Counted from the first letter of the whole stretch, positions 36,581 to 56,564 are shown. The stretch: 56,564 bases of DNA, filler included, from Catajapyx aquilonaris (GCA_000934665.2; 3 parts of 3 records of this genome joined end to end with filler, not necessarily neighbours in it); one strand, 5' to 3'. Numbers and translations: made by a program. Notes: generated by a model from the letters alone, not told the origin.

Positions 36581-36582
36581 TA

Positions 36583-37314
36583 CAGGGTGTCCCTAAATGA
36601 TTGTCAACTTTTGAAAGCTGCTTAATTTCTATTAGATGCGGTGTGCAATGACAAGACATACATAGAACGAAAGACCACATTTGGGAGTTTTTATTGCACA
36701 CAGAAAAGTTGGTTCCGCACTTTGACGCGAGGCACACAGGGCCACTCCACAAAATGGTGTGTCTCGAACAGAAAACGTTCCGTGTCCTGCAGTTTACAAA
36801 GCTTGGTTCGGTAGTTACTGTTCAGCAGTCCTTCAGGCAACAGTACGGCCGACGTTACGCCCCTCCCTACAATAATTCAACGGTGGTTCCAGAAGTTTCA
36901 GACGACGGGATGCCTTTGCAAGGGCAAGGATCGGCGGATCGGACATGCCGGTCAGCAAGATCGGTTTTTCTCCAGTGGCCGCCAAAGTCTCCCGACCTCA
37001 CCCCATGTGACTTTTTCCTCTGGGGGTATATGTAAAGGACCAGGTCTTCGTACCACGGCTACCTACCAGCCTGTGTGGGTTGAAACGCAGGATTGTTGCT
37101 GCTTTGGAATCAATCACACCAGACATGCTGGCCTGTGTAGAGAATTGGACTATCATGTCGTGTGACGAAAGGTGCTCATATTGAGCACTTGTAGTGTGTG
37201 CAATAAAAACTCCCAAACGTGCTCTTTCGTTCTATGTCTGTCTTGTCATTGCACACCGCAACTAATAGAAATTAAACAACTTTCAAATGTTGACAATCAT
37301 TTAGGGACACCCTG
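36583..37314 (+). mobile_element. Internally deleted mariner-like (maT/DD37D) element
   Basis: TA|CAGGGTGTCCCTAAATGATTGTCAAC ... GTTGACAATCATTTAGGGACACCCTG|TA, TIRs of about 120 bp, TA TSD; transposase remnants SVVTVQQSFRQQY and WPPKSPDLTPCDFFLWGY. Confidence 0.9.
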
Positions 37315-37691
37315 TACTTCCAACCATACTTTTATGTAAGTATAATGTGTTATGGTTATAAATAATATTCTAGTTAATAAAAACTTCCTTTTTAAAAAGT
37401 AAAACCTACTCTTGGTAAAACTAATATTTTCAACCACTTTTTCGAAATATGCACTTTTTCGTCCCCCTCAATTTTCTAAACTATTAATCCTACAGAAAAC
37501 ACGTAGAGGACAGTTTTGTAGGACATTAAATGTAGTTTAATTTGGTACATAATGTGTTTCTTGCTAGAACCCTTACGTTTTGAGATATTCAAGAAAAACC
37601 TATAAGAACAACATTTAAACCCCCCCCCCTCCCCACTCTACTCCCCTCTATCCCCCACCCACCCCACTTTTAGTATGTCGTTTAGGGCACT

Positions 37692-37791
37692 NNNNNNNNN
37701 NNNNNNNNNNNNNNNNNNNNNNNNNNNNNNNNNNNTTAATTAATTAANNNNNNNNNNNNNNNNNNNNNNNNNNNNNNNNNNNNNNNNNNNN
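37692..37791. other. Artificial assembly linker (44N-TTAATTAATTAA-44N)
   Basis: Same 100-nt six-frame-stop spacer as 18798-18897. Confidence 0.95.
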
Positions 37792-37959
37792 ATGTAAATT
37801 CTTGTTCTTGATTAGCTTTTGAATAATTGTGGATGATGAGATACATTGGCGCGGGGCCTTTATGGTCGGGTCGCCGTAACTCTGACACACAGTATATGTA
37901 TATGATTTATTTTGAAAATAACCTACTGGGACAACTTTGATGAGATAGCCTACTCCCAG

Positions 37960-38500
37960 TCGCGTCGGGGTGGAGGAGAGGTATGGATGGTAGGGGGTTG
38001 TCATTCAGGATGGTCTGATAGCTGAGAGCATTGATGGTTCCTGAGACGAGATGCAGCTTGCCTGGTCCTTTCCTCACAATGCATCCCCAGACCATGATAC
38101 TGGATGTGAACTTGACGGCATGAGCCAAACACGCCGGGTGAAATACCTCACCACGCCTCCGAATGACTCGTGCTCTTCCTGCATCACCCACTGTCAGCTC
38201 AAACGTACTTTCATCGCTGAATATTACGCAGTCCCATTGTCTTTGGACCCAGTCACGGCGAGTTAGGGCCCACTTGAGTCTTTTCTTCATCTGAAGTGCA
38301 GTCAGTAATGGTTTAGGCTTCGGCTGCAAAATCATAAAAATAGTGTCCATGATAACAACCAACTCCAGTGACAACTGAGTGTACCGAAAGCTTTCGAAAG
38401 CCATATCCCATCGTGTGCATCCGCGCCGTGAGCAAGTGGCCGCAGACACTGCTTTGCTCATTCGTTGTGACCAGGTCTGGTTCACTTCTGCGGTGGTCAT
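37960..38500 (-). mobile_element. Tc1 transposase fragment
   Basis: KPLLTALQMKKRLKWA...WDCVIFSDESTF...VKFTSSIMVWGCI..KGPGKLHLVSGTINALSYQTIL; truncated before the second catalytic Asp. Confidence 0.9.
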
Positions 38501-38740
38501 TCATCTCCAGAATCTCCAATCGGCGATGCGATGTGCGTTGACCCGCAGAATCTGCATGCCCAGTCCGGATGAATCCCCTGTGATCATCACCGCCCCGTGT
38601 GTAGCTATGTAATCGCCTAGGCGTAGGTGTAACCCCGGGCTGGGTATCTCAGTTGGAGGAAGAAGGGTGTACGATATCACCGGGTAACCGGCTTGGGAGA
38701 AGTCCTCAGTCAAGGGGGGTAGAGGAAAAAAGGAAGCCAT
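38501..38740 (-). CDS. Unknown-domain protein, copy A (putative LTR-element accessory gene), 3'-truncated by fusion to Tc1
   Basis: MASFFPLPPLTEDF...YIATHGAVMITGDSSGLGMQILRVNAHRIADWRF is homologous to 42600-42967 and 53585-54230. Confidence 0.6.
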   Translation of the reverse strand: MASFFPLPPLTEDFSQAGYPVISYTLLPPTEIPSPGLHLRLGDYIATHGAVMITGDSSGLGMQILRVNAHRIADWRFWR

Positions 38741-39359
38741 GGTAAGAGGTTGACGATGAGTGAAGGACTGGCTGGCACCAGCTCGATGTTCGAACGCAGG
38801 GCATCCTCAATGCGCTGACCCTGCACCTTTGAATCTATCATCCTTTGAAGAATTCGTATCACGTGATGTATAGACTTCTAGTACTTATCATTAATTTCGG
38901 ATGAAAATTCATTCCGCAAATTCTCGAACTGACTCTGGAATTATGGGCAGTGCAGTCTCCATCCGTTCGGGAGATGCACTCTCTGTTGGTACGACATGGG
39001 TGTCGGTTAGTACGGTGGGGTCAAAAGTGTGGGATTCAGGATGCTTCGGTTCCACAGAGTCTTTCGGAGTGCGACTCCGTGCTCGATATTTATGAATGCA
39101 ACCCAAAATTAGTCCCACCAGAATGAAAAACTGTTACGGCAACTACTGCAGGCACAAAAACTGTGGGTTGTGACCAGTCGTCAGAAACCACCGAAAAAGG
39201 GGGTACTTCCCCAAAGATTCGACTGCATACTTCAAAGCATCCATTGACACCGTAAACCCTGTTGAGACGGAGCGTAACTGTTTCACCATGGGAGTCCAGC
39301 GACCCTCCTTCGCAGTAAGTGTCACAAGTAAGGTCATGGGTCATTGACCTACGACCACT

Positions 39360-39723
39360 TGCCTAGTTCTTTTGGCCTCCCGGGTTACACCTTGGAATAA
39401 ATGGGCAGCAGGGTCTTTTCCATTGTTTATTGACATCAGCTAATAATCTACTGTGACAGAATCGGTAGGCAACCCGAGTATCAGTTCTGACCTTTGTGAC
39501 TGCAATCAGGGACATCTCAGTAGGTAAGTCAACCCGGAAGGCCGTGCTACCACGCAGGGGGTCTGCTCCTCCCTCTACAGCAATGGCCGCCTGGGGCTGG
39601 GCGAATAAGAGTTGGTTTGGGACTCCTCTGGACCCTCCTTCCTTCTAGACAACTCCCTCGGGAACGGGCCCCGAGTGGGTTGGGTGGAGCCTTTATATAG
39701 CTGACTCCGACCTTGTCGTGACA
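39360..39723 (-). mobile_element. LTR-like sequence with PBS-like TGG downstream
   Basis: Minus strand TGTCACGAC...TATATAAA...AATAAA...CTAGGCA followed by AGTGGTCG. Confidence 0.55.
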
Positions 39724-39729
39724 GAACTG

Positions 39730-40010
39730 ATACTGGGTGCTATCACCTTACGCGAGTCATACTCCCTGTGACCAAATATGGTTCCCCCGCCTTCTAGGCG
39801 CCAGGCTAAATCGGCTTGTTTACTTACTACTCTGCCAAATGGCTAAAACTGGGAAGCTTTTCCCCTCATAATGTACCATTAGAGTCACCATATTGCGGTG
39901 ACAGGTTATAAGGGTGACAAACGCTTCTCCTTGAATTAAAGCTGGGTGCAACCCGGCTTTAATGTCAAACGGATAGTATGAATCACGTAGTATACAGTAA
40001 CTGGATAAAC
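39730..40010 (-). mobile_element. Degenerate Ty3/gypsy reverse-transcriptase N-terminal fragment
   Basis: HTIRLTLKPGC....KRLSP motif; DNA-level homology to 47720-48030 (shared ACCATATTTGGTC...AGTATGAC). Confidence 0.5.
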
Positions 40011-40029
40011 CTTTTTTCTACTCACACTA

Positions 40030-40800
40030 CTAACGACTCCGTTGAAACAATTTATGGTACATCATTGCTAGCCTCATTCATTCGTAACACAATATCATCC
40101 ATAGGAATTCCTCTTTCTACTCGATTGATTCTAGTGGACCACAAATTATTCTTGGTTTCATCCAATAGTAAATTTGTGCGCAACACTATTTAACACACGC
40201 AATTCCATTCCGCTAAACATAGAGGTGATCTCTGGGACCACTGTGTGTCCATTCATAGGTAGTTTCTTACTAGAACTACCATGTAAGTTAGCTTCTAATC
40301 GGAAATCCGTGTGAATGGCCCTACACCCAGGGAGCAATGTGAACACTCCCTCTTTACAACAATCCAAACGCCCTGTGTTCCTTCTTTACATTCTTTACTA
40401 ACTACCCACTTACAGCCTATACAACCATTACAAACTCTCAGTCTGTGGAGACCGAACTGAAAACATCGGTGCAGGCCTGTCACCTTAATTTCCACCCGGG
40501 TTCACAGTCTGGAAGTTCCCCTCATTGGCAGGAATAGCAGACACTACAATTTCCTCCCTTGTTTGTTCCTGCGTAGTTACGTATGAAACAGATGGCTGTC
40601 TTCGGTAGCTAGGATTCAAATTACATTCCTTCCTATGTCTCTTCACTATGTAGTAAACGACTCCCACTAGAGCCCAAATTCCAAAGAATACGAACACAGA
40701 CACATAACTACTAGGGTGCACCCAAAGATTTGTACCACTCTCAAAATCCGGATCAAGCTTCATCATCTCATTTTTGTTTCATTCAACTCTCTCATTAAGT
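40030..40800 (-). mobile_element. env-like (fusion glycoprotein) fragments of an LTR retrotransposon
   Basis: Ectodomain-like CCKEGVFTLLPGCRAIHTDFRLEA; helical GMPLWDLMRELNE, LWVHPSSY + TM VSVFVFFGIWALVGVVYYIV + basic stop KRHRK. Paralogous TM piece at 47400-47700. Confidence 0.55.
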
Positions 40801-40995
40801 CCCACAGGGGCATGCCTTCCTTTTCATTCGGTACGGAGAACGCCCGAGTCTGGTGTACATCTTCTTCGCCCACGGGGGTTAGTCCCGTCAATAGTTGTTT
40901 GTGATAGTCGACGACGCACTCCCAATAGCTCAGGAAGTCATCTCCTAGACTGACAGGGTGTAGTAGCTCGGAAGTGATCAGAAATCCTTTCCCAC
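40800..40995 (-). pseudogene. C-terminal half of a retropepsin-like accessory gene (paralog of 49188-49625)
   Basis: FLITSELLHPVSLGDDFLSYWECVVDYHKQLLTG aligns with LYIISPSATPVILGLDFLRYWECSIDISRQLLVG. Confidence 0.7.
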
Positions 40996-41199
40996 AGCTG
41001 TCGTAACACACCGGAGCAAGGGGGCAGGAAGCCCGACTCTGCACAAGAGCGTCAATCAGGTCCGGAAGTCCTACCAGCACGATAGGGGGACGAGATTCGT
41101 ACCAGCGGAGTGATGGTGAGGGGACGTTCACGATGATAACAGAGGTGGAAATGAGTTTGGAGAGAGAGAGAGAGAGAGATGTCAGAGGTGGGCACAGGG

Positions 41200-42340
41200 A
41201 TGTGCGTCGAAGGACGGGGTAGGCCGCTCGAACCGAACCTAACCCTTTCTGCGCAAGTGTCATAAACTACTGAAGTACTAGCAGTTATGGGGGACTCTGG
41301 GGTGGGTAATTAGGTCCCTGACCTGGTGGGTACCGTATTTGAGGCACGTATTCGTACAAGTACGATTCGCCCCGGCCGTGGGCGGTTAAATCACTTCCGA
41401 TTGTCGAGGCACTTCCGGATGGCACCGGAAAGTACCCGGGGGTGGCTGCGACACGGGTACGGGCTGCGCAACACCCGCCTGATTGTTGCTGTTGTATAGT
41501 TGTGGACATGGCTGACTCATGCAGTGATTTTGTCTGCGCCGCCTACATGGGTACGGTGGTTCCCTCTGTGCTGCCGGAGCCGTACACGCATTTGCTCTGT
41601 GGCCGACACCTGAGCACCGGAAACACCTGTTTTCCGAATTTGGACCTCTTTGAGGACATTCTGAACGCAGATGATTTTTAGAATTGCACTGATAACAGCG
41701 CAACCCATCCTTCCGTTTCTTTTGATTCGCCCCGTTCCTTCCGCCTTGTTTTTCCGCTTGAGGAGAGGACTCTACCGCTTGTTTCGCTTCAGCCCACTTT
41801 TTCGTCGCTTCTTGCTGATATTTGGCAAGTTCTTTGGTCAGCATAGCCACCTTTTCCCCCAGCTGATCGACTAGGTTGGTATCTGGGTCGTCACTGACTA
41901 CGCAGGCCCTAGTGTTAAATTTGTTGCCTGTATTTCTGCCCCTATCATTGGATTCGCATTCCAATGCTGTCTTTAGGCACCTGACAAGTGTGTCGGTTTG
42001 AGAATTTGGAGCGTATGTCTACTTTTCTCCGACCTTCACCCTGAAATGAACTGCGCCAGGATTAACACGTCGACTGTCTCCCTGTCTCTGGGTGCGTCGG
42101 CACATGCATGAAGGTTTACCTCCATTCTGCGGAGTACAGTAGCGAACTCATTCACTCCCTGCCCTGCCTCTTGTTTGATACCCTGCACGTCTCCGATTAA
42201 ATCGGAGAATCGCCGACTGGGGTTAAAACGTTCCATGAACATTTCTTTGAACTTTTTCCAGTCCTTTCGAGTCCGTTCGTCATGTTCGAGGCCAAGTTCG
42301 AGGCTTCTGCGCATGTGCAGTTGTGCATCGCGTGACATGT
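41200..42340 (-). mobile_element. Ty3/gypsy gag (capsid + two CCHC zinc knuckles), frameshifted
   Basis: DWKKFKEMFMERF...IKQEAGQGVNEFATVL...ILAQFISG (retrotransposon gag) and knuckles CYQCNSKNHLRSEC and CFRCSGVGHRANAC. Confidence 0.9.
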
Positions 42341-42399
42341 CCTGGTTTGCGCATCTCCCCGCGCATCACGTGATATGTACCTCATAATACGACGCCGTT

Positions 42400-42598
42400 T
42401 ATCAGGTACTAACAAGAGGTACCAAATCTTCGTACCCTTTATTAACCAAGGGTACCTCTTAAGTACCCCCTAATTTACACCATGTACCCTTTACATGGGC
42501 CGCAAATGGGCGTCCCTCTTAAAATTTACCAGGCATACCTTGTATATCAGAGGTACGAGGCTACAAGGGGTACACCATGAGGTACCGGATTAAGAGTG
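42400..42598 (-). mobile_element. CACTA/EnSpm-like terminal fragment
   Basis: Minus strand begins CACTCTTAA, followed by many GTACC/GGTAC subterminal repeats. Confidence 0.5.
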
Positions 42599-42599
42599 T

Positions 42600-42967
42600 A
42601 AAATCCCGCCTGGGTTTGTTCCGCGTCTAGCGCGAGATACTCCCAAAAGTCCTCGTCTCTGGATAGAAAGGGTGCGGCGGGAGCGGCTGCGGCGTCACGG
42701 TTCCAAGCCTGTGCGACGATGCGGGTCCTCTCCGGGAAGTACCGCCATTTTGACTCTGTTGGCGTTGAGACGGACCTCTTGGACCCCTCGTCCTGACGGG
42801 TCGCCGGACAGCAGCACAGATCCGTGTGGAACTGGGTAGATTCCCAGGTGTAACTGATCTGTTGTATTGGGAGTCACTGCGGGTTGAGGAAACATGTAGG
42901 CAATCCACGGGCCCGAAGGATGGGTGTAGTCTTCAAGGAAAGGGGCAAGGGGTAGGAAGTTTGCCAT
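42600..42967 (-). CDS. Unknown-domain protein, copy B (one frameshift)
   Basis: MANFLPLAPFLEDY...YPVPHGSVLLSGDPSGRGVQEVRLNANRV, continuing after a frameshift as WRYFPERTRIVAQAW, which matches copy C WHWFPVGSRAVIRAW; TCAGTC Inr-like motif just upstream. Confidence 0.6.
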
Positions 42968-43001
42968 GATGCCTGGTCAGAGGTGAGGGAAGGACTGACT
43001 G

Positions 43002-44390
43002 CACTGTAAAATAAATTTCCGTTATATTACGGTACAAAGTGCTGGCAGTTTTGCTGCCAGAAATTTTCCGTGAAATGTGAACACTGAACATTAACATTTA
43101 GTCTAAAAAATTTTAAGTAGCTTTATCTGATATTCAGTGTAATCTTACCTGTTGCTTGTTCTTCAGACTGTGAAGTACTAAGGAGGGCTTCCTCATCATG
43201 TTTTCTATCCGGTGTTCCAATAATATTGCATTAATATCAGGTAGCTCCCTTCACCAATAGGGTTGCTGCCTTGGAAGGAATCTCTGAATTCTTTAGGAAA
43301 AGTTTTCACAATATCAGTCGCTATTTCTCTCAGCAGCTTCCTCCCTGGCCTATGCTTCACAGATCCTATTATTTCATCAGCTACAACTCTGACAAACTGC
43401 AGCCGTTCTTGCTTGACAGCTTATCTCCATTTTTCAGTTTTGAGATCACATGGCTTGACACTTTGTGCCATGGAATTTTGACATTGCTCTGGACTGTCGT
43501 TTCAGCTGATTGGGTTCCTTCCTGATTTGGTTGCTCTCCTGTACATAGAGCTAAATGTCAATATTTACACTCCTGATAATGCTCACTGAAACTAATGCAA
43601 TTCTAAAAATATTTTACCTGTAGTTTTCTCAGTACTGGTACGCCAGTGCTTCAGCAGTCTGCGCACCTGAATAGGCTTCATAACACCAGTGAAATCTTCT
43701 TCCTCCAGAAGCTTCATAGACTCTTCATCTTTCACACCTAGTTCTTCCAATTTTTTAATAAGTGCTGTCTTTTCATCAGCCTTCATGTTAGGAAACACTT
43801 CCTGTAGCACTCGGAGCACACCGTCCATACTTGCTGCTTACAGCAACTGAAAAAATGGAACAGTAACATCACTAAATTCAGCTATGCACACAATAAACTG
43901 TATACTTGGTGCCTGGCTAAGTCACGAAATCCTCCTAACTCAAGATGTTCTCCAGGGCCATACCAGTAGTAGAAATTTTTGATAATGGTGATGGTTGATG
44001 CAGTGAAAATGAGGATGAAGATGAATTAAGATGATTAAAAACTTTTGTCGGGTATCCAGTGATGCAATGGGACATAGGTCCTGCCAAACACTGAATAGCC
44101 ATACAATGGATGGAAATCTAAAATGTCACATAAATTAAAGCATCTATATGAGACATTTCTTTGGGCATGTGTTAGTCTGTGAATGCCGAGGTCTGTGGTT
44201 TCACTATGAAACATCTCCACTGCCAGCACCACTGTCTCCTCCTCAATGACCATCACTAAATGGACTTTACCAAATATGATGTCAGTGTCTTGTCGCATCA
44301 CTGCAAAATATTGATTTCGCCTGTACTCAGTGCCCCTGTGTGTGAGTCGCTCACAGACAACTGCACTCCGACATATGCCACAACTGCTTC
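43002..44390 (-). mobile_element. Deleted CACTA (EnSpm) element: transposase C-terminus plus spliced SAM-like ORF2
   Basis: CACTGTAAAA terminus at 43002. Transposase tail RGTEYRRNQY...FGKV...DFHPLYGY...YVPLHH (44035-44390). ORF2 exons LIKKLEELGVKDEESMKLLEEEDF...KPIQVRRLL (about 43620-43828) and IPWHKV...IVKTFPKEFRD...RIEN (about 43150-43540). Confidence 0.8.
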
Positions 44391-44659
44391 CCTTAAGTAT
44401 TGTTATGATGATGAACGGCACGGTAAAACACGTTCCAGCTTGCGCACGGACGCTGCCGTCTTGGATTGATGGTTGGTTTCTTGTTGCTGCTCAGGTTCGC
44501 AGGAAATGGAAATGTGGGTTGAGTGGGAGACGGCAGCTCATCGAGGATATGGCTTGGATCTTTTTTGCAGATTTCAATGCGGTTCTTTGGCAATCCGTAA
44601 TAAATATTTACTGGCTTTTTTAAATTTTGAGGGTTGGTTCCTTGTTGCATAACACCGTC

Positions 44660-44740
44660 TATCTAGCCTCATCCTCGTCTAGCTCCTTTCTAGGGACAAT
44701 TCAAAAGGCCTTACATACCGTAGCATCACTCCCCCTACCA
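44660..44740 (-). mobile_element. Polypurine tract plus start of a truncated 3' LTR
   Basis: Minus strand GTAGGGGGAGTGA|TGCTACGG following a T-rich UTR-like region. Confidence 0.4.
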
Positions 44741-47399
44741 GCTTGCGACCAAGAGGAGCAAACTTTAACCCAAAATGTCAAATTAAAACTATGAATGAAA
44801 CAGTTCTGCATACCAAATAGACAGGGTAGCAAACCCCCAACGGGGAGGGGGGAATCCAACAAACATTCCACAGGAAAGGTCCCAAAAGGGTGGGGGACCA
44901 TCCCCGGCAAACACTAACTCTTTAAAAAAAACACACACACACACAAAGAANAACTATCACAAAGATAAGTACAACCCACCAAAAGTTTGTACACAAATTA
45001 CACGTTGAAGCAAGGAACACCTTGTGGTTGTGCCTAGTTTCTGACTGGACACTAATATGCAACGCCGGACGGGTTGCTCACTGTCAAGGGGCAGTGGAGC
45101 CCTGATGGAAAAAGTGCAGCAGCATACTGCTCCTTTTTTCTCGACCGTTAGAGGTCGGGTGACGTCACGCACTTCACATGTGCTCGCACAGCTGATCACT
45201 GAGTAAATGTTGTCCTCTCCTCTTTTTCTCGAGGATGGAACACTCGCACTGCACGTCACTTGCACCGTTTATTATACGACATTTCACGTATAACCAGGAC
45301 TTGTCTGTAATTACGATGAGAAAAAAAACCCAACCTTATGCTAAAAATATGTTGATGAACATATTGACTGTACGACACTTGACCTGTGCCATGACACTGA
45401 CACGGAATGGCTGCTTAGAGAAATCATGAGCGAGAAAGCATAATATCTGACACGCTGCTGGTGCCTGTGAACGCAATACGCGATGTGGAATGCAAAGAGT
45501 CCCACTTGGACCCTCGTTAGCAGGCGGAGGCTGCCCAAAAGTATGCGAATTTAATGAACTGTCTCGAAATGAAGTTACGTATGGTTGTGGTGATCACCCT
45601 AACTATGAAGATAAGTATTAGTAGGAATTCGATTCACCCCCCTACCTTGCCAGGCAAAGGTATTTTCTGCAGTGCATTCACTTTTTATATCCCACTACAG
45701 TCCAGGAGTGAAAGGAAATTTTTGCTGAAGCAGTATTTTCTGCCGTAAGTCAGAGATTTAAAAAATATGATATTAGTATTATTATGTAAGTATATCAACA
45801 ATAGGGGGTTGACGCCCCGAGCATATGAAAGTGGAACCTAAGCATATGACGTGTCTGACTGCTTGAATATGAGCTTGGACGAGGTCATACGGGTCATGAG
45901 GAAACCGGGCGGTGGCACGGCATCTAACAGCGGTAGTAACACCGGGGCAAGGGGCAGGAAAGCCCGTCTCTGCACAAGAGCGTCAATCAGGTCCGGAAGT
46001 CCTACCAGCATGCTAGGGGGAAGAGATTCGTACCAGCGGAGGGATGGTGAGGGGATGTTCACGATGATTACAGAGGTGGAAATGAGGGTGGGGAGAGGGA
46101 GAGGGGGCAGAAGTCAATCACGGGGGAGCGCTTGTTCGCTTCGCACAAGGCTAGAGCACAACTCCCTTCCAGCCGGACCTCCACCCCCCTCAGACAAGGG
46201 TAGGTTGCATCCATTCTGGGGATGCTGGGAGTCCATCGTTCTGGACACTTGCCGCAAAGTTTCGTTGAGAATTGAGATGAATCGTGGCAGCCAATCCACT
46301 GGGTCGACGCAGACTCGTCCAGCTGACAGGGCGAACTGCTCCCAATGGCTGGAACAGGCTGTTTGTTGAGACTTGCCACTCTTGGGCAATCCTGGAGCAG
46401 GTTGCACTGTTTCTGCAACCCCTCTCGAGGGCGGGTAGGCCGGTCCTTCAAAGTGGATGGTACCCATGTGATGAAGAACGACCTGAATTATGTCGCATGA
46501 TCGAAACAATGTATGGAGTAAGGTACAGGTCGGCAGCATCAGTTGCACGACCCCTCACGAAGGCGGGTAGGCCGGTCCTTCAACCCGGGTGCTGGCTGCA
46601 CCCGTATGGTGTCACTTAAATGCTCCGGAACAGGCTTCCGATAGTTCTCGTTCGCCCCGAAAGTCACTTGTTTTGCACACTCACACTGATGTCCATCGCG
46701 AACCTGTTTTCTGGATCGCGGCCAAAAATCCACGCACTAAGTTTGTACTGTTGAGCGATGCTGCAGCGGCAGTTGGTGGCGGATGTGTACGGAATGTTTT
46801 GACAGGAATGTTCCATCGTTCACTCGGTGCTGTTTGTTGTTTGCAGGTAAGAGACGGGTGTAGGAACAACGACGAGGAACAAGGTTTCTCGGGTAGTGTG
46901 CCTGGTGGTTCGGAACCACCACAGTAAGTGCTAGTTGTGAATCTAACTCTGTAAAGCAAAAATTGCACTCTCGCACTGATTCTCTCAGCCATGACAAATA
47001 CATTGCAAAGAAAGACAAAAATTACACATTTGATTATTGGTTTAACCACCAAGCACTGCGGAGTTTTCCAAGACTGTCTTGTAAGGGCATTTCGTCCGGC
47101 ACACAGCCATTATGCTCCTCATAGATCGCAGTATCACACTCAAAGTTACATATATTACCCTGTGAAGCTATTTTGGGTGTACTGGGACCAGCAAAACGCA
47201 AAGTTGAATCGCGAGGTGCGGCAGAGGCACCGAACAACGTGGTATCGCTAAACCACTCCCGAGCTCTAGGAGAAGGCTTAGGACCCCTCGCTTGCGTTGT
47301 AAGACGAGTTAGGCCGCTCGAACCAAACCTAACCCTTTCCGCACAATTGTCATAAACTACTGAAGTACTAACAGTTACGGGGGCAACATGTGGAGGTCC

Positions 47400-48030
47400 T
47401 CGGTGACCCACATTTTCTTGAAGAGTCCCCGGGCTATTCTCTAGACTGGAGCGTGCTGTCCAACAGGAACGGTTCCTGCATAAGAAGTAGCCCACACAAA
47501 TGAACGCTGAAATTGAGACAATCCCCACTGAGGGGACAAAGCTGGAGGGATGCTCCCACATGGAGCTTGAAAAGTCATTATCTGCCAGTACATGGTCCGA
47601 AAAATCTCGCAGTGCCATAGTTTCTCGCCGCAGTTCAGCCATGGACAGTGTGTCCGTATTGAGTTCTGAAAGTCGTGGTAAAAGTTTGGCCATGAGAGGC
47701 TGGTCATTTGTTACATTAGTCAACCATTAGTCATACTTCCTGATGGACCAAATATGGTCGCGCGCCTAACTGACTTCGGCCTCTCCCGTTTTGTTTACTC
47801 TAATTTTACACCACAGGGCCGCGTCGTGACTTTGATGGAGCCTAATGGCTGTTTGCTAAGTGGTTGTCAACAATCAATCCCGCTAATAGTTCCGTTTATG
47901 TGTAGCGCTCGCCTGAAGGGCGACAAACGCTCCCCCTTAAATTGAAGCTGGGCAATCCGGCTTCAATATCATACGGTCAGTATGATCTCGTACACATACA
48001 CATATGCCCTTCTGAGAAATTACGAGGGGC
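47400..48030 (-). mobile_element. Gypsy RT fragment fused to env-like TM fragment
   Basis: HTDRMILKPDC...ERLSPF (RT N-terminus) runs into LSMAELRRE...MWEHPSSF + TM VGIVSISAFICVGYFLC. Confidence 0.5.
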
Positions 48031-49187
48031 GGAGCTGGGCCATAATTAATCATGGGGGCCCGTCGGATGTGATCCCATCCTTCTGCCGCCGACATCCTTC
48101 TAGCCACCGAGGGGAAGGTCCAGTGGATGAAAAATCCAGGGCGCTCTCTCCCCGGGCTCCATCCTCTCGACGGTCGTCCCATCGCTCAAAGGAATTGGTG
48201 GCGCCGCTGGTCACCGCCGCAGGGGGGCTCCGCTCAGGTCGTCCCAGGGAAGGGGTGTCCCATCCACTGGAGGCAGCATCTTCGTCACCGGCCGAGGCAC
48301 GAGCGGGTGTAGCACAGCAATCCATGACAACTGAGTTAGATGTGTAAGTGGCAGTAGTCTCACTAGGAGTGTCACAAAAGGGGCATCCACCCTCCCTATA
48401 TAGCAACGCCATCCTCAGAAAAGGGGGGTATTTCTGGACAGGGGATAGTGTGACCTGGATTTAAGTACACATAAAACAGGGTTCCATTGTAAGTCGATTT
48501 ATTCTGTATAACGTGCTGTACATATAACGTCAGGAAAAAAGGAAGGTTGAATAGTTGTAGAGTGAAAGGTAAGGAGCAAGCGACCAGCCCTCGGGATATG
48601 CTCCCGAGGGACTGGCCTGGAGCATAGCTGGCTGGTTGGTTAAGGAGTTGGTTTGGTACACTGCATGATGGGTATTCACCTGGGGTGTGAGGAAAGGACG
48701 TTACAAACAAGTTGCATGATGGTTGGAGTATACTCATACAGTGGTATATACTCGTACAAGTGAAAAAGAGACGGGTCAATACTACACTTCAATTGGGTAT
48801 CTTACAGTGGCACAATGGGGTAGGCACTGACTTGATAAACTGAAACAGAAAGTGAAAGGAAAAGGTAACTAGACCTTCCTGGAATCTTACAGGGTCACAC
48901 ACCTCCGACCGAAGACACTCCCCCCCCCCCCCAATAGGTATGAAAAACGGGTTTTGTGCGTTTATCCTCTCGTTACTGGTATACACAAAAATAAATAAAC
49001 AGAACTGTCCGAATGGGCAATGGTTCCCGTCCAAAATAAACAAAATAGAAATGAGATGATTATGTAAGTTACACATCGTGCTCATTGACTTCTGGTGAGA
49101 CCCCTCCCGTTGGTTGAGGAGGGTCAAGAACACCACTTGCTACAGACACTTCTGCGGCCCGATCAATAGCCAGGTTGTTGAACATTT

Positions 49188-49625
49188 CTATGTGCATAGA
49201 AAATGCAAATGGCCCCCCGCAGCGCCGTCAGATGGGATAGCCCCCACCAACAACTGTCGACTGATATCGATAGAACATTCCCAGTACCTTAAGAAGTCCA
49301 ATCCTAAAATCACCGGGGTTGCTGATGGCGAGATGATGTATAGCCTCTTCTGGTATACATGTGGGCCCACACACAAGGGTAGGGTCATCTCTCCAAGCGG
49401 CACAATGGCGTGGCCGTCAGGGGTTGCAAGTCGTACTTGTTCACATAGACGGATAGCAGGTCGTAAGTCGTCAGGAATACGATGTACCACGTTGGTTGAC
49501 ACGATGGATGCTGCGGCTCCAGTACATAAAGCTGCGGTCCATGTACGTCCGTATATGGATACTGGTATCGAGGCAGCGGCACTCCAGGCATCGGTTGAAC
49601 CGGCCAAGTTCAACAAAAGGGACAT
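49188..49625 (-). CDS. Stand-alone retropepsin-like protein with Cys in place of the catalytic Asp
   Basis: IPVSIYGRTWTAALCTGAAASIVS (cf. ALxDTGAxxSxIS), flap LATPDG..IVPLG and ILGLDFL motifs; own ATG and an upstream TATATAAA. A probable homopolymer frameshift extends the C-terminus to about 49065. Confidence 0.8.
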   Translation of the reverse strand: MSLLLNLAGSTDAWSAAASIPVSIYGRTWTAALCTGAAASIVSTNVVHRIPDDLRPAIRLCEQVRLATPDGHAIVPLGEMTLPLCVGPHVYQKRLYIISPSATPVILGLDFLRYWECSIDISRQLLVGAIPSDGAAGGHLHFLCT

Positions 49626-49697
49626 CTTTCAATGACTGTGAATGAAGGAGTCTTGAGCACGCCAAGTGCAGTCAGTCCATGAACCCAACTCCTCTTC

Positions 49698-49705
49698 TTT
49701 ATATA
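49698..49705 (-). promoter_or_regulatory. TATA box of the retropepsin-like gene
   Basis: Minus-strand TATATAAA about 75 nt upstream of the ATG at 49625. Confidence 0.5.
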
Positions 49706-50532
49706 CGACACACGTACACACACACTAACACAAACTTTCGTCATCCCTCCCATCACTGTCTCCAATGGGACAGTTCAAATGCGGGGCCAGTTGGTGGCCG
49801 TTTACCATCAACGACCAGCTCAAGATGGAATGCAGGTATGACGTCCGGCATCCAAGGTCCAAAGATCCGGAACGGCATCTCCCCAGCACAAACGGGGGTA
49901 AAGGGGGAATATCGTGGGTTCTACTATTCACGCATTTACAGACGTGACAGAGGGTGAATCCCATAGTAAAAAGGGGTCTTACAAAACCCCACCCACTCAT
50001 CCATTGGCATTCAATCAAATTCCCGCCGGAAGGGCATTGTGGGTCAGTAGTGGGCGAGGGGCCTCTCCTAGGACACTTCCTGTCTGAACACTTCCGGTCT
50101 GCGGCCTCCTGAGGTCACCTGTTTCCGGTTGAGGGGGCCACTCGATACCCACCTGTCGGTTACCGTTACATATCGTATCTCAACGTATGTCAATCCACAA
50201 CGTATGTATGTATGAGGCTATTTTTTTAACTGGTACCCACCTGTCGGCTACAGTTACTATCAATCATCACCTGACGTCACCCTGTCGACGTATGTATGTC
50301 AATCATAACCTAACGTAACTTAACGTCGTAACTTCACCCAACGGACATATGTATGTGACATATGAGGCTATTTTTTTAACAGGTACGCACCTGTCGGCGT
50401 GGTACAGTACGTGCAAACCATTTGTTGTCAACAGCTAAAAAAAACACAACAACCAATTGTTTCCAATCAATGTTACCAACAATGTTGTCAATCAGCACCT
50501 GGAATGTAAGGGGTATGACACGCAACAATCTG

Positions 50533-50862
50533 TCAATACATATTTATTGATGCTTCATTACAAGTTGACAGCATAGGATTAAAAATCAGTTCAGTTAGTG
50601 TTAGAGGTGACTCGTGTTCAACAATGCACGTACGAAGTGTAGCATCCCTCATCCCCTTGAACAGGTGCACATATTGTTGTAAAGCTGGCGATAGATCTGA
50701 AGCTGCTCTCAGTTGCTTTACAAAATTAATCAGTGGTTCCCCAGAGTACCAACCATTTTTACTCATACGTTTTAAGTTAGGTACTTGATCCCAAAAGTCT
50801 CCATCCAGTTCTCTTGTCATGTCAAGGAGGGGGAGGCTCACCTTCTTAGTGTATGTGATCAT
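50533..50862 (-). CDS. Hypothetical 109-aa protein (virus/Polinton-like compact ORF block)
   Basis: Intact ATG ORF with protein-like composition, 29 nt downstream of ORF 50892-51200; family not recognised. Confidence 0.4.
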   Translation of the reverse strand: MITYTKKVSLPLLDMTRELDGDFWDQVPNLKRMSKNGWYSGEPLINFVKQLRAASDLSPALQQYVHLFKGMRDATLRTCIVEHESPLTLTELIFNPMLSTCNEASINMY

Positions 50863-50891
50863 CAGGTAAAAAAATAGTTTTAAGTGACAAT

Positions 50892-51200
50892 CTAAATTAA
50901 ATAATGCTCAATACTCACCAAACCAGGACGAAGTGTATCCTGTCCCGCAATATCCGGGCAGGTGTACCATGATATACCACCCAAAAATGACAGTTGCCTC
51001 TTCCTCCTCAGTTTACAAGTGCAAGTGAACGAGCTGAATTGGCAAGGTGTGTAGGTATGATCCATTCCCGGTGGGATGAGATTGATGTCGTGCAACACTT
51101 CCTCCTGATTCCTCCAGAAATCAGTAACTTTTTCATCCTTCCACATTTTGGCACAGGTGTGGGGCCTAACCTTCACGTACAAAGTCACTCGAAGAGTCAT
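50892..51200 (-). CDS. Hypothetical 102-aa protein
   Basis: Good start context (CACCATG), preceded by CACCTG-rich repeats; family not recognised. Confidence 0.35.
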   Translation of the reverse strand: MTLRVTLYVKVRPHTCAKMWKDEKVTDFWRNQEEVLHDINLIPPGMDHTYTPCQFSSFTCTCKLRRKRQLSFLGGISWYTCPDIAGQDTLRPGLVSIEHYLI

Positions 51201-51746
51201 GGTGACACACGGAGTTGAAATTGGCGAATGAGAAAGACTTTTACAGTGTTGGAACAGGGTTGTGGATAGGTAGACACCTGCCCCTACCAGCTGAGACGTT
51301 ACACCTACACAACAGGTTTAACCCCAAATTGAGACACCTGCCCATACCAGCTGATCTGAGACGTTGAGAACATCCCTGTAAAAAAAAATCTATCTTACAC
51401 CTGTCGATCGTGAGGGGTCATCTAACGGTGACCCTGGTAAGGAAAATAAGAAGGTAGGTGTGTAGAGAATTCCATCTAGCGGCACCAACTAGGACAACAC
51501 CATCAAGCGGACCTTCACTTGCAGCTAAAAAAACAAGACCACCTCACCTGCATCGTATCCCCACCTGTTCCCAAATGTACCGAAGCCACCTGGAGGTCAT
51601 CTTAGCAAGGAGTAAAAACGTGTCGTTTGAGGTCACATAATGACACAATAATTGTAACTTTTTTTATTTATTATTCTTTATGTCTACAAGACTGGACAAA
51701 TCTGCAAAGAGATAATAATAATAATAATAATAATAATACTAATCTC

Positions 51747-51959
51747 TTAGAAGTCATCAACATGTTGTGACTGTTGTTGCTGCCGCTGCTGCTGATGTGT
51801 TATGAGCCTATCAATCGTCGATTGTGCAACCCGAAGTTCACATCTCCTTACCAGCCTATGGTAAATTCCGTAAATTAAAAAAAATAGGAGGATTGTGGTG
51901 GATGTGATTGTCATGATTAGGATTACCCCAATCCATTCACACTGAACTGATGGATCCAT
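51747..51959 (-). CDS. Hypothetical 70-aa single-pass membrane protein
   Basis: Hydrophobic WIGVILIMTITSTTILLFFLIYGIY, basic stop-transfer residues, poly-Q tail; AATAAA downstream. Confidence 0.45.
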   Translation of the reverse strand: MDPSVQCEWIGVILIMTITSTTILLFFLIYGIYHRLVRRCELRVAQSTIDRLITHQQQRQQQQSQHVDDF

Positions 51960-52415
51960 TCTATAATTTAAAAAAAAATGTTAGATACAGAATAATGTTC
52001 GCACAAATAAAACACACCTCTATAATGCTGAACGCTATCCACTCAAGTGCTCTTCTTATAGCTGATCATGATTTTCTGAAAAATCATTTCCGTCTAACAC
52101 TCTTCAGTTGCAAATCCCACGCTTCATTTTTCGCATATACATTTTTCATAAGACGGAAAAAAACCATCACATGGATGTCTACGCAGCTTAAATAATGTTC
52201 ATAATTAATCCGGATTAATGTATATGTTTGATAATCAATGTATAGTTAAATAAAACGGCTGCAAATGTCATGTGAGCAAAAGTTGGCGGCTAACGGTGTA
52301 ACCCACACCCCGCCAACCGAGCCATCATCTCCCCCGGCCCGGCATCACGTCAAAAAGTATGCCGTGATACATCACTTTTAAAAAAATTCATAGACGCTTG
52401 GGGTGAATACTTATA

Positions 52416-53266
52416 TGTCGCCGACAGATATTTATTTGAGAGTAGGATCAGTCGACTATAAGTTTTCTGTGTGAACGCAGGATGAGAGAAATAAGTACAC
52501 TTACTCCACAGTAAATGAGAAAGAGTTTATTGTTAACCTTTAATAAGAACAGTGAGAATATTACACCCTTTGACTCAACGGTACAAGTTCTGGGTGATAT
52601 TAGTATCAAGAATAAATACACGATTAAGACACTGGTACTCTTACGGGTTATGTGTGCTGGAATCAACGTCTGAGTTGGTTCGGAGGAGAAAAGGATGTCT
52701 TCTCCTGGTCCTGAAGTATACTCGAACGGATCAGTCGGGTTTCTGGTCTTCTCTGGTCAGCGGTGGTCTCGCCCGTGGTGTCCGCTCTTCGATCGTCTCT
52801 GGTGGTCTCCGGTTCTCCCTCTGGTCCTCTCTCGTGTGGCGCCGGTACTCTCCTCCTCGTCTTGGGGCAAAACGCTCCTATTTATAAGGAAACTACCCGG
52901 AAGGAATAGTGCTGATCTCGGCATGATTCAAGGCTGGCTCCGATGCACCGCGTAGGGGTGGAATGCATCCAGAGTTCTGCAGCTGCATGTACCGAGCACG
53001 GGGCTGACATATTGTCAACGGAATGCTGCGTCATCTTGTCCTAAGGAGGACCCTCTATCCTTGATGGGCAACAGGCATATATCGGCGCGTGCATTACAAG
53101 GTTATGTTATGCAACGTTATATGCGGGGATAATGGGGAATGATGCAATGGCTTAACCATGACTCAAAGCAATTAATGGGGCGTGAAACAATATGGATACT
53201 AGGTTACACTATGTCGCGTGTTGGACCTCATACACACTTAAGTGACCTAACCATAACATGGTCACA
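52416..53266 (-). mobile_element. 3' LTR of a Ty3/gypsy element with adjacent PPT
   Basis: Minus strand AAAATTTTGTCTTTTAGCGAGGGGAG|TGTGACC (PPT at about 53267-53277), internal TATAAATA near 52880, probable end ...GGCGACA; the left boundary is approximate. Confidence 0.7.
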
Positions 53267-53584
53267 CTCCCCTCGCTAAAAGACAAAATTTTCTTTGAAA
53301 CAAAAAAAATTTTCTCACTCATTTATTCCGTTACCAACTCAGGAAAAACTACATTGGTGCTCTTCAAATATATAAGGTGCATAATGATTAAGTTCAATTG
53401 TCCGCTTACATGGTTTTTCACACAAAAAATATAGGCTGCACTTAAAACATACCAATAAGCAAAAAAGAGGAAAAAAATCCTTCGAAGCACTACACTCGTG
53501 TATAAGGAAGGAGGGAAAAAAAGGAATAAGGGATAACCACTTTCAGGAGAAGATTAAAACTTTTGGAAGGGTGCACTTTTTCAT

Positions 53585-54230
53585 TCACTCTTCTGGGGTT
53601 TCCGCACTCGAGGAACCTGGTGGGGGACTGCGTCTGTGGTCCCACGTCACTCTTGTGCTGGTCGGCTGGATGGTCCAAAATTGCTCGGGATCCTCATCTT
53701 GGTCGTCTGTCGGATGCTGCTCTGGTGCGGGCTGTCTGCTCACGGATCCGGAGGCGGCTCCTGCCGACTCTCCTCTGGATGCGCCGGTCATCACGGCTGC
53801 TACCGCGGCCACCGCTGCCTCCATCTCCACCGGGTCGAATGAAGAGTTTGGCATTAACCAGTTACTGTGGAGGCGGCCTTCCTCCGTGGTGTCTTCGTGC
53901 CAGTACCAGTCACTCTCCGATGCCGTTGGGTAGTCTTGCGGAGCTGTGGACCACGGGGCATGGTTCGGCTCCCAGGCGCGGATCACTGCCCGTGATCCTA
54001 CTGGGAACCAATGCCAATCCGAGAGCCGGTTGGCATTGATCCTTATTATCTGCAGTCCACTATTGGAGGCGTCGTGGGTCACTAGAATCGATCCGTGAGG
54101 GATCGTAAAACCCTCCAACTGTAGCGGCTGATTTTGGTTCCGAGTCCCAGATTCCGAAGGGGGCAACGTGTAGAAGATGAACGGGTTTCCAGGTCTAGAA
54201 TAGTCTTCAAGGAGTGGTGGCAACGGATGG
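53585..54230 (-). CDS. Unknown-domain protein, copy C (longest; acidic low-complexity tail), directly upstream of PPT/3' LTR
   Basis: PLPPLLEDY...FTIPHGSILVTHDASNSGLQIIRINANRLSDWHWF; open to its stop at 53585; native start replaced by Transib sequence. Confidence 0.65.
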
Positions 54231-54431
54231 TACATGTACTCCATGCTGCGTATCCATGCTGCGTATCCATGCATGTAAGCTGTGAATGCCAAGTTTTATG
54301 CCGTCCTCACGAGTGCCACGCTGCATCACTGAATCCACGTCATTCATTTGCGAGGACTTCGCTCCACATATGTTGCATGTTTGAGAAGACTTAGTCTCAT
54401 TTAGAACATTACAAATCTTCCCATCTATCAT
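54231..54431 (-). mobile_element. Transib transposase core fragment
   Basis: MIDGKICNVLNETKSSQTCNICGAKSSQMN...LHAWIRSMEY matches the Transib/RAG1-like core (TMIDGK.CN...S.Q.C.ICGA....MN...LHAWIR). Confidence 0.85.
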
Positions 54432-54433
54432 AG

Positions 54434-54999
54434 TGTCGAACCCTCCGCGTAATCAAGGACTTACCTCAATTATCTGGAAGAGAACGAAAGTTGTGGCAAA
54501 CGCAGGAAAAAGTGGGAATGAATGTCGACACGACTCAAGTGTATTTAAATATTGGTTATTATTGACACTTGTTGTCCAACGACAACTCAAAAAGGTACAT
54601 TACACTTGTTGCCCAGTGACAACTGAATTTACACCGAAGTGTGCGGTTGACGTGCCTCTCTTACTGTTGCTGTCTTTTTCCATGGCGGGTAGCTTCCCGT
54701 CTATGCAGGAGAAGGTCACGGCCGCTGGTACATCTGGTCATCAAAGTGCGTCCGGATTGTTGGCAGGTCGTCTTCCAGTGGTCATCCTTCCTGTCTGTTG
54801 GATGGTCAGCTTAGGTGTCGTTGCCATTGTTAGAGAGTGGTTGTAGTCTTCAGATGTTGACCGACTACGCTCTCGCCAAAACAGGGAAGTGTTGGTCGCC
54901 ACATGTTGAGTGCCGCGCACATGGGGGAGGGTTGATTATTCGCGAATGGTAGATGAAGTTTTGAATTAGGCTTGGGTGACCGCACCACCCAGTACTACA
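54434..54999 (-). mobile_element. Possible solo LTR
   Basis: TGTAG...TTCGACA termini on the minus strand, abutting the Transib fragment; no TSD seen. Confidence 0.35.
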
Positions 55000-55289
55000 C
55001 AGTACTTGCAAAAATTAGACAATCACTCCCATTGAAAGCTGAAGGTTAATTTTGTTACATCTTATCGTCGAAAAGGGGGCCCACCGACTGTCCAGTATAC
55101 ACCTAGTCTTTCTTCAGCTGCAACCCGAAAATCAGCCAGGTCAAATTGATTTCATTGGCTCTTCATTAAAATGTTACGTTCCTTTTTGGACCCCACAATA
55201 TAATACCATCGCGATTAATAAATTTTATATGAAATGAAAAATGGCACATTCGATCGATGCTTCTGCTTTTTTACTACCCAAGGCATTTT

Positions 55290-56409
55290 GACATCAATTC
55301 CTACCTTATCGGCGAGGTCTGTAACCTCTTCGAAAATTTCTTCACACTTCTCTTCCACTTCTGCACAGACTTTTCTAAAACAGCAATTACGTCATTAACT
55401 GTGCGTTTTCCGGCAACAACGTCAATGGTCTTCTTCTGCAAAGATCGGCTTAAAGCTTGTGTCTTGGTCAGCAGATTTCCGAGGGACATGATAGCAACAA
55501 TACATTCACTCTCGCATAGAGCAGATGACAGCATTTTAGCCTTCGATGATGTCTTCGGATCATTCCACGTGGATATTTCTTCAAGAGCTTGGACAATTTC
55601 AGGTATGTTTTCCAGAAATTGCTCTATGCTGTCGTGCCTTTCCACCCACCTTGTTTCAGAGAGGCCAATGAGTTGTGAGCCCACAACTTTCTTCAGGACT
55701 GTTGCGTTTAGCAGACGTTCCAAAAAAAGAAACAACTTCTTTGATGGTGCCCTTATGTTCGGAATGCTGCTGGATTTGGATATCGAAATATTCAGTTTAT
55801 GGTTGAAGCAGGAGCAGTGGACAGCATTAGAAAGAGTTTTCTTAATTTCGTTAACAGCTCCACATGTGCTTGAGGTCCACAATGGATCCTAATACTTTTC
55901 TGTTATCGTCGACTTGCTGTTGGCGCTGAATTGATAGCTGGTTTGTTATTTCAGCACGAGGATTACTGAAAGTTACTAGGAAATCGTGAGCTGCTTCCAT
56001 AGCTTCCTTATGATATCTGTTTCCTTCGTGAACAGTCAGATCTCCATCCTTACCAGTCAGCTTGGAAAAATTGGTGAGTGGCTTTGTGACTAGTTTTGAG
56101 AGTGCAATCGTTTTTTGAACTCCTCCGGTTAGATTGGGGACAAACAGCGGACATATCTTACAGAAATAACCATGTTCACTATCAGAAAGAACAAACCAGT
56201 TTTTGAACGTATCAAGGTGCTTTCTACTTGCATATCTTTTTTTCTTTCTTTCCACTTCTGATTTTCTCGTGTTCAGAGTATGGAAATGAGTAGCAAGACG
56301 GTGGCGCCCAGTGGTTAGTAAGGATCTTGTGTTTCGTAAAATCGTCAATAGACGAAGGACTAGGATGGGCCTTTAAGATAGCACCGATGTCTACTTGATG
56401 ACTAGCCAA
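55290..56409 (-). mobile_element. hAT transposase (ZMYM1/PRKRIR-like), internally deleted and frameshifted
   Basis: GYFCKICPLF...LVTKPLTNFSKLTGKDGDL..HE...YHK (TTF zinc finger), HCSCFNHKLN, LSETRWVERHDS, LSRSLQKK.ID; the central DDE region is missing. Confidence 0.9.
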
Positions 56410-56564
56410 TACTTCAGCTTGACTTTGTGCTGGTCTTCCCCCATCGGCTTCTGCAATGTTTGTTTTGTTTGTTTTGTGCTTTATTTAGTCCGTCGGCCTG
56501 CAGCTAATGCCGCTTGGCCGACCCTCCTCTTTCCTCACATGATTGCATTCACATTTATCGACAT

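Follow-up and report, generated by a model that had tools for sequence, protein, structure and literature searches.

The 18.8 kb contig at the end of the analysed window is most probably (at a rough probability of 0.55) ordinary transposon-rich DNA, in which dead elements came to share one orientation by chance or by selection within a plus-strand transcription unit. We regard this as more likely than the uni-strand piRNA cluster proposed in a preliminary description. The co-orientation itself is real, yet based on few fragments: all six units that could be oriented lie on the minus strand and none on the plus strand (four units with a Pfam match, a hAT fragment and a repeated N-terminal domain). 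The window, the whole stretch of 56,564 nucleotides, consists of three contigs joined by N spacers. Contig 3 covers positions 37792-56564, and both of its ends are contig ends. The spacer in front of it (37692-37791) is composed of N runs and the linker TTAATTAATTAA, which bears out its treatment as a contig of its own; one single N is present inside, at position 44951.

For the Pfam analysis of contig 3 we used 128 stop-to-stop ORFs of at least 60 aa (60 plus, 68 minus) and a second set of 143 sequences, which comprised the remaining 135 ORFs of 40-59 aa and a repetition of 8 longer ORFs, so that 263 ORFs of at least 40 aa were scanned in total. Matches to transposon families were obtained for 4 of the 128 longer ORFs, each of them in minus orientation, namely to HTH_Tnp_Tc3_2, zf-CCHC, Retrotrans_gag and gag-asp_proteas. 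At E <= 0.01, Pfam returned nothing for the 60 plus-strand ORFs of at least 60 aa. The remnants identified are a Tc1/mariner piece, an internally deleted ZMYM1-like hAT element and three to four diverged copies of a gag-protease retroelement, each of them truncated or internally deleted. The features are listed below in order of position.

37910-38500, minus strand: Tc1/mariner transposase fragment, end of the HTH and first half of the DDE catalytic domain (Pfam and PDB).
38510-38749, minus strand: N-terminal domain of the gag-protease retroelement, copy a (tblastn, 42-43% identical to copies b and c, E 1e-17 and 2e-17).
39910-39989, no strand assigned: 80-nt direct repeat with its partner at 47916-47992 (blastn, word size 7, 81% over 80 nt).
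40641-40754, minus strand: membrane-proximal segment and hydrophobic transmembrane-like tail, copy 1 (tblastn).
40874-40990, minus strand: C-terminal part of a retropepsin-like protease, copy 1 (tblastn to 49191-49628, 51% over 39 aa, E 1.5e-7).
40994-41293, no strand assigned: 300-nt repeat, copy 1 (blastn, 88% to 45927-46116 and 47293-47383, direct).
41389-42018, minus strand: zinc-knuckle part of gag, two CCHC knuckles (two stretches matched by Pfam zf-CCHC, E 6.3e-8, above cut-off).
42039-42365, minus strand: gag capsid-like domain (Pfam Retrotrans_gag at 26.4 bits, cut-off 24.1, E 8.3e-6).
42749-43003, minus strand: N-terminal domain, copy b (tblastn to copies a and c, alignment, codon pattern).
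43208-43837, minus strand: single frame with four stops (read by eye).
45927-47383, no strand assigned: 300-nt repeat, copy 2, split into 45927-46116 and 47293-47383 (blastn).
47475-47582, minus strand: membrane-proximal segment and transmembrane-like tail, copy 2, within a 230-aa ORF (47037-47726).
49191-49628, minus strand: retropepsin-like protease ORF (Pfam gag-asp_proteas at 24.5 bits, short of the cut-off of 28.2, E 4.3e-5).
53588-54295, minus strand: 236-aa open frame with copy c of the N-terminal domain at 54008-54232 (tblastn, codon pattern).
55203-56424, minus strand: remnant of a hAT transposase, ZMYM1-like and DUF4371-type (homologue search and tblastn).

The preliminary description had placed essentially every fragment that it could orient on the minus strand. 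This was confirmed for the six orientable units; reverse transcriptase, RNase H, integrase, a recognisable env, CACTA, Transib and virus-like ORFs, most of which it had also named, were not detected by Pfam in any of the 263 ORFs, and no pair of LTRs was found in contig 3. Three read-through minus-strand frames of 37792-47393 added nothing, with no RVT, RNase H or rve match in Pfam. The number of superfamilies, given as at least five, came down to three that could be verified. The statement that host genes are lacking agrees with our scan: no non-transposon Pfam family reached the curated cut-off on either strand among the 263 ORFs of at least 40 aa, a length at which short exons would escape.

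The Tc1 fragment, which runs toward the left contig end, matched HTH_Tnp_Tc3_2 with an E-value of 0.001, under the curated cut-off, and aligned with residues 8-119 of the 230 residues of the Sleeping Beauty transposase SB100X (5cr4_A; query residues 61-172, E 1.3e-12). Neither terminal inverted repeats nor a duplicated TA target was found for this element (contig 3 has no inverted repeats of at least 40 nt, and one terminus lies beyond the contig end). The hAT remnant was identified through 10 homologues (best E 1.5e-34, 43% identity), 8 of which carry PF14291, PF27073 and PF05699, and one of which is named zinc finger MYM-type protein 1-like. Mapping by tblastn showed that it corresponds to residues 72-246 and 434-661 of an 846-aa relative (P0001); approximately residues 247-433 are deleted, and the last ~185 residues (662-846) have no counterpart. 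An atlas search led to DUF4371 and ZBED5. The fragment itself gave no Pfam family in the scan of 263 ORFs, though its relatives carry three, and a PDB sequence search with the read-through frame was blank or returned noise. A weak TED_complement match at 55854-56372 was rejected, as this ORF belongs to the hAT remnant.

The gag-protease retroelement combines gag and a retropepsin, as in Ty3/gypsy elements, with Retrotrans_gag and zf-CCHC above and gag-asp_proteas below their cut-offs. It cannot be classed as gypsy, since reverse transcriptase, RNase H and integrase were not detected among the 263 ORFs or in the three read-through minus-strand frames. The gag region gave blank results or noise in a PDB sequence search. 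The protease ORF at 49191-49628 had a weak match to DDI1 in the PDB (E 0.074), and a homologue search for longer proteins yielded none among 2828 candidates. The two transmembrane-like tails are related to each other (37% over 38 aa, E 4e-4 in tblastn), and copy 1 possibly represents the C-terminus of an env protein. Neither tail copy 1 nor the tail ORF matched a family; the best atlas score was 0.84 with no lead to env, so that this search lends the env identity of the tail ORF no support.

The N-terminal domain is present in three copies. Copy a adjoins the Tc1 fragment, and copy b immediately precedes gag when read along the minus strand. Identities among the copies by codon position were 0.52-0.57, 0.68-0.72 and 0.29-0.40, a pattern which indicates that the domain evolved under purifying selection at the protein level. 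Divergence under such selection argues that the copies are separate insertions of distinct lineages and not one decayed duplication. The 236-aa ORF had no relative among 1.84 billion representative proteins, which sets this retroelement apart from known LTR-type Gag-protease elements, and none in viral contigs; the alignment of the domain found no match in metagenome contigs. Structure prediction from the three-row alignment gave a mean pLDDT of 48.9, too low for a fold search. The viral-contig search with three ORFs lacking a family returned nothing for two of them and for the third one 19-residue match (L001), which was dismissed as chance. The domain of this retroelement, conserved under selection and unmatched in the libraries searched, is the only new item in contig 3 and may mark a lineage-specific retroelement clade. 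The homologies to ZMYM1-like/DUF4371 hAT elements, to Tc1/mariner and to LTR-retroelement Gag-protease proteins concern single remnants, all of them partial copies.

The 300-nt unit is the only sizeable repeat of the contig. Copy 1 is flanked by the zinc knuckles on one side and the protease remnant on the other, and copy 2 is interrupted by an insert of ~1.18 kb (46117-47292). No tRNA or Rfam match was obtained with the unit, and its identity as a tRNA-derived SINE therefore lacks support. The frame at 43208-43837, which we take from inspection by eye to resemble SAMD3-like proteins, was blank in the PDB search, had no homologue among 1109 candidates and gave only sub-threshold noise in Pfam.

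How much weight the co-orientation can bear depends on small numbers. For six out of six units on the minus strand the two-sided binomial P is 0.031, uncorrected and for a contig that had been picked for this very pattern; if the pieces at 54 kb and 49 kb belong to one element, P rises to 0.0625, with the same selection of the contig. That 18.8 kb yields no more than six orientable units, and hence an uncorrected two-sided P of 0.03-0.06, we count in favor of the reading as ordinary DNA. Other counts point in the same direction as the units. Within contig 3, the non-self tblastn rows (21 in all) are without exception same-strand, and all six repeat pairs found by sensitive blastn (word size 7) are direct. 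ORFs of at least 100 aa are distributed as 25 minus versus 13 plus (two-sided P ~0.07, normal approximation). Poly(A) signals show no strand asymmetry (AATAAA, 10 plus versus 11 minus), which we count in favor of ordinary DNA. Among the non-self tblastn rows of contig 2, 4 of 23 are on the same strand and 19 are inverted. The contrast that the preliminary description had drawn with contig 2 thus holds for the orientation of repeats; it does not extend to transposon proteins, none of which can be oriented there (a single weak DUF4817 match in 102 ORFs). The co-orientation of units, protein rows and DNA pairs, the lack of inverted repeats, the inverted repeats of contig 2 and the excess of long minus-strand ORFs all speak against ordinary DNA. 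In contig 1, three copies of the CD36 family share the plus strand with two related ORFs (14790-16649 and 18327-18650), which indicates tandem gene duplication; this quintet shows that co-orientation of five features arises for unrelated reasons in the same window.

As for the cause of the co-orientation, as distinct from the identity and strand of the remnants that we observed, we infer that it most likely has no dedicated function. Contig 3 would be a gene-poor patch of dead transposable elements, made up of a truncated Tc1/mariner element, an internally deleted ZMYM1-like hAT element, the 300-nt repeat, filler, and an unclassified LTR-type retroelement in three to four copies that belong to diverged lineages and are decayed and rearranged. 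This retroelement would have consisted of the lineage-specific N-terminal domain, gag, zinc knuckles, retropepsin and the transmembrane-like tail, with the reverse transcriptase not surviving. With as few as five or six independent insertions, the pattern can arise by chance. Alternatively, sense insertions could have been removed by selection in a region with plus-strand transcription, for example the interior of a long intron or a non-coding unit. Antisense bias in introns is usually statistical and not 100%. It has been described for ERVs, LTRs and other transposons in mammalian introns, in excerpts of PMC1794541 and PMC3517506. The likeness to contig 3 is that transposons are co-oriented relative to a transcription unit with no small-RNA function involved; the differences are that the bias is documented in mammals and that neither an exon nor a host gene was detected on contig 3. 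As no host-gene domain was detected on either strand, no enclosing gene is in evidence, which counts against the ordinary-DNA reading.

According to the reading put forward in the preliminary description, which we consider improbable, contig 3 would belong to a uni-strand piRNA cluster of the flamenco type, whose long plus-strand precursor, antisense to all remnants, would be processed to 24-31-nt, 1U-biased piRNAs that silence Tc1, hAT and gag-protease elements. Arthropod piRNA clusters, unidirectional ones included, are known from the excerpted texts of PMC10643416, PMC7161354 and 10.1101/2025.05.30.656998. As in flamenco and the flam-like clusters of Drosophila, truncated remnants of several families lie on one strand with no host gene between them. 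The strand bias of the transposon fragments is strong (small sample, P ~0.03 uncorrected), and intervening host protein-coding genes are absent among the 263 ORFs of at least 40 aa, a scan that would miss short exons. It also suits a cluster that the six orientable remnants of three superfamilies are all truncated or internally deleted, that inverted repeats and host-gene domains are absent, and that the three N-terminal domain copies are insertions of distinct lineages, as an archive would hold. Against this, the orientable units are few, and the contig measures 18.8 kb compared with 227-1,085 kb for flam-like clusters, in which Gypsy-family ERVs drive the strand bias according to excerpts of PMC10643416. 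Two of the six units here are DNA transposons, and homology to reverse transcriptase or env was not found; as the LTR-type copies have no reverse transcriptase, RNase H, integrase or recognisable env in the 263 ORFs, an ERV or Gypsy enrichment of the flam-like type is not established. The Drosophila clusters moreover have a defined promoter and small-RNA evidence, whereas contig 3 is a candidate by its sequence.

The excerpted text of PMC7161354 describes a unidirectional, flamenco-like and EVE-rich piRNA cluster in Aedes aegypti, likewise a locus of a non-Drosophila arthropod proposed to yield antisense small RNAs from one strand. What defines that cluster are its non-retroviral EVEs and its measured small RNAs; no virus-like ORF was found in contig 3. 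For the crustacean Parhyale hawaiensis, excerpts of the preprint (bioRxiv 10.1101/2025.05.30.656998) report 108 piRNA clusters predicted from small-RNA reads with proTRAC, the majority of them bidirectional, which argues against a uni-strand cluster here. If contig 3 is a cluster, it shares with them the origin from a non-insect arthropod and the richness in transposons; theirs are defined by reads, and contig 3 is a candidate by sequence. A rough Bayesian weighting, for which we assumed how transposon-rich DNA is shared out among clusters, introns and intergenic space, gave ~0.15-0.25. We consider it doubtful that contig 3, which comes from an arthropod other than Drosophila and the mosquitoes, is a piece of a plus-strand uni-strand cluster that would archive Tc1, hAT and an unclassified gag-protease family, possibly with an env tail, in an architecture not restricted to Gypsy ERVs. 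If it were such a source of plus-strand piRNAs, a further arthropod lineage would be known to have uni-strand clusters, and DNA transposons would be added to their cargo; this would touch on whether the ancestor of arthropods already had a somatic defence of the flamenco type. On present evidence, contig 3 is another stretch rich in transposons, and its strand bias is suggestive but statistically thin.

Co-orientation could also result if a composite unit had been duplicated locally in tandem long ago, or if a tandem family of host genes derived from gag-protease had since become pseudogenes, because tandem copies are co-oriented by construction. This we regard as the least probable of the explanations considered. 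Consistent with it, the three N-terminal domain copies, the two protease pieces, the two transmembrane-like tails, the two 300-nt repeats and the two 80-nt repeats are all direct, the N-terminal domain shows purifying selection as expected in a gene family, and tandem gene duplication occurs in contig 1 of the same window. However, the order of the shared modules differs: one copy of the 300-nt repeat precedes the protease, the other follows the transmembrane-like tail, and the 80-nt repeat switches side. The flanks have no DNA similarity, and the Tc1 and hAT remnants are unrelated to the composite unit but still co-oriented. Finally, gag, zinc knuckles and retropepsin jointly constitute the signature of a retroelement.

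All six orientable units of contig 3 (37792-56564, with one lone N at 44951) lie on the minus strand and none on the plus strand. These units are the Tc1 remnant, N-terminal domain a, element 1 (domain b followed by gag, zinc knuckles, a protease piece and a hydrophobic tail), the second protease with its tail, domain c and the hAT copy. By our own arithmetic the two-sided P of this co-orientation is 0.031 for six units and 0.0625 for five, before allowing for the contig having been picked for its pattern. The three contigs that make up the window are joined by N runs around a TTAATTAATTAA linker.

Features identified in contig 3 by Pfam or tblastn
37910-38500, minus strand: HTH_Tnp_Tc3_2 (Pfam E 0.001)
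38510-38749, minus strand: N-terminal domain a (tblastn)
41389-42018, minus strand: zf-CCHC (Pfam E 6e-8)
42039-42365, minus strand: Retrotrans_gag (Pfam E 8e-6)
42749-43003, minus strand: N-terminal domain b (tblastn)
49191-49628, minus strand: gag-asp_proteas (Pfam E 4e-5)
54008-54232, minus strand: N-terminal domain c (tblastn)

For the Pfam analysis all 128 stop-to-stop ORFs of at least 60 aa in contig 3 (60 plus-strand, 68 minus-strand) were used. Transposon families were detected in four of them, all on the minus strand; two more weak matches under the cut-offs, to CobT and TED_complement, were in minus-strand ORFs as well, and none of the 60 plus-strand ORFs gave a match. A second set, made up of the other 135 ORFs (40-59 aa) and eight of the long ORFs searched again at a looser threshold, added no transposon family, and seven of the short ORFs showed sub-threshold matches to unrelated families. 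A read-through Pfam search of 37792-47393 in all three minus-strand frames revealed nothing further. The preliminary description had listed RT, env, CACTA, Transib and virus-like ORFs among the fragments on one strand. Its observation is partly confirmed by the sequence comparisons: the uniform orientation held for every orientable unit, but Pfam detected no RT, RNase H, integrase, env, CACTA-type, Transib/RAG-like or viral family among the contig 3 ORFs of at least 40 aa.

The ORF 37910-38500 is securely identified as a Tc1 transposase remnant. With E 1.3e-12 it matches the first half of the catalytic domain of Sleeping Beauty, and it runs toward and off the contig end. For the hAT ORF 55304-55888 ten relatives were found (best E 1.5e-34, 43% identity); eight of them carry DUF4371, PF27073 and a hAT dimerisation domain. 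Among the ten is a protein annotated as zinc finger MYM-type protein 1-like. In tblastn, an 846-aa relative aligned to 56424-55203 on the minus strand through its residues 72-246 and 434-661. Since its middle ~190 and last ~185 residues had no counterpart there, this copy is internally deleted and truncated. A tblastn search with hAT relatives detected no second copy of this type within the window.

A tblastn comparison of all 746 window ORFs of at least 40 aa with the window itself revealed a domain of ~75 aa in three minus-strand copies in contig 3. As gag and the zinc knuckles directly follow domain b on the minus strand, we infer that the domain is the N-terminal part of the Gag region of an unclassified retroelement. 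The copies share 41-45% protein identity, with 21 of 82 alignment columns invariant; at the DNA level just one pair was barely detectable (58% identity). Identity was 0.52-0.57, 0.68-0.72 and 0.29-0.40 at codon positions 1, 2 and 3, a clear pattern of the kind left when copies diverge under protein-level (purifying) selection. The copies therefore represent distinct lineages from separate insertions and not the product of a single neutral duplication. Searches of 1.84 billion representative proteins, viral contigs and metagenome contigs yielded no relatives, and a structure model was of too low quality for use (pLDDT 48.9). The domain, a minor by-product of this analysis, may mark a lineage-specific retroelement clade.

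Further modules are shared in the same orientation. A protease C-terminal piece at 40874-40990 shows 51% identity to the protease 49191-49628, and a membrane-proximal segment with a hydrophobic tail occurs at 40641-40754 and 47475-47582, all on the minus strand; judged by shape alone, the tail could be an env C-terminus. All 21 non-self protein-level repeat rows (tblastn) and all six DNA-level repeat pairs within contig 3 are direct, and inverted repeats of at least 40 nt were absent. The preliminary description had set contig 2 against contig 3, and the repeats bear this out, with 19 of 23 rows inverted in contig 2 (tblastn) versus 21 of 21 direct in contig 3. Contig 2 lacks an orientable transposon protein match (one weak DUF4817 match in 102 ORFs). 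ORFs of at least 100 aa in contig 3 number 25 on the minus and 13 on the plus strand, and AATAAA occurs equally often on both strands (10 on the plus versus 11 on the minus).

We weighed the six of six co-orientation against rough prior estimates, assumed by us, of how transposon-rich DNA is distributed among clusters, introns and intergenic space. With a probability of about 0.55, contig 3 is ordinary transposon-rich DNA whose co-orientation arose by chance or through selection within a transcription unit on the plus strand; in mammalian introns, ERVs and other transposons are biased antisense, a non-piRNA source of co-orientation (excerpts of PMC1794541 and PMC3517506). The preliminary description had proposed a uni-strand piRNA cluster resembling flamenco. 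Excerpts of PMC10643416 attribute the strand bias of such clusters to Gypsy elements and describe them as spanning 227-1,085 kb and as defined by promoters and small-RNA data; of the clusters predicted in Parhyale, a crustacean, the majority are bidirectional (excerpt of bioRxiv 10.1101/2025.05.30.656998). Judged from its sequence, contig 3 is unlikely to be part of a piRNA cluster. Local duplication would also yield direct copies, and we consider it improbable as the origin of the co-orientation. The novelty of contig 3 is low, as it would join a known kind of locus.

A 300-nt repeat is present in two direct copies (88% identity), the second interrupted by ~1.18 kb, and gave no tRNA or Rfam match. 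Because the two copies are placed differently with respect to the coding modules, they are not a simple LTR pair. A short direct repeat (50168-50248 and 50308-50398, 76% over 92 nt) contains a recurring cacctgtcgg-like motif that is found again near 51270-51400. Contig 3 has seven homopolymer runs of at least 8 nt (44924, 45321, 50437, 51380, 51877, 51970 and 53302), every one of them a plus-strand A run, with no T run among them; those in 50120-52500 do not resemble poly(A) tails with target duplications. The AT skew changes sign, from negative at 40-44 kb to positive at 44-52 kb.

The many short inverted pairs of contig 2 would fit MITE-like or TIR elements. One pair, 36582-36704 and 37193-37315, is ~88% identical as translated, and the weak DUF4817 HTH match (36652-37032, plus strand) adjoins it. 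Contig 1 contains five co-oriented features, explained simply as tandem genes.

Features of contig 1
1950-4000, 7950-9920 and 12370-14300, plus strand: three tandem copies of a CD36-family gene (Pfam)
14790-16649, plus strand: intact 620-aa ORF (weak Lig_chan match, E 0.013, below cut-off)

CD36 was matched by eight of the 19 contig 1 ORFs submitted to Pfam (best E 5.5e-32). Copies 2 and 3 share ~91-100% protein identity, and copy 1 ~60-80% with both. Each copy is spread across several frames, implying either introns or ongoing decay. The 620-aa ORF, for which no PDB relative was found, is possibly an intronless ionotropic-receptor-like gene, and a partial paralogue is located at 18387-18623 on the plus strand (67% over 81 aa).
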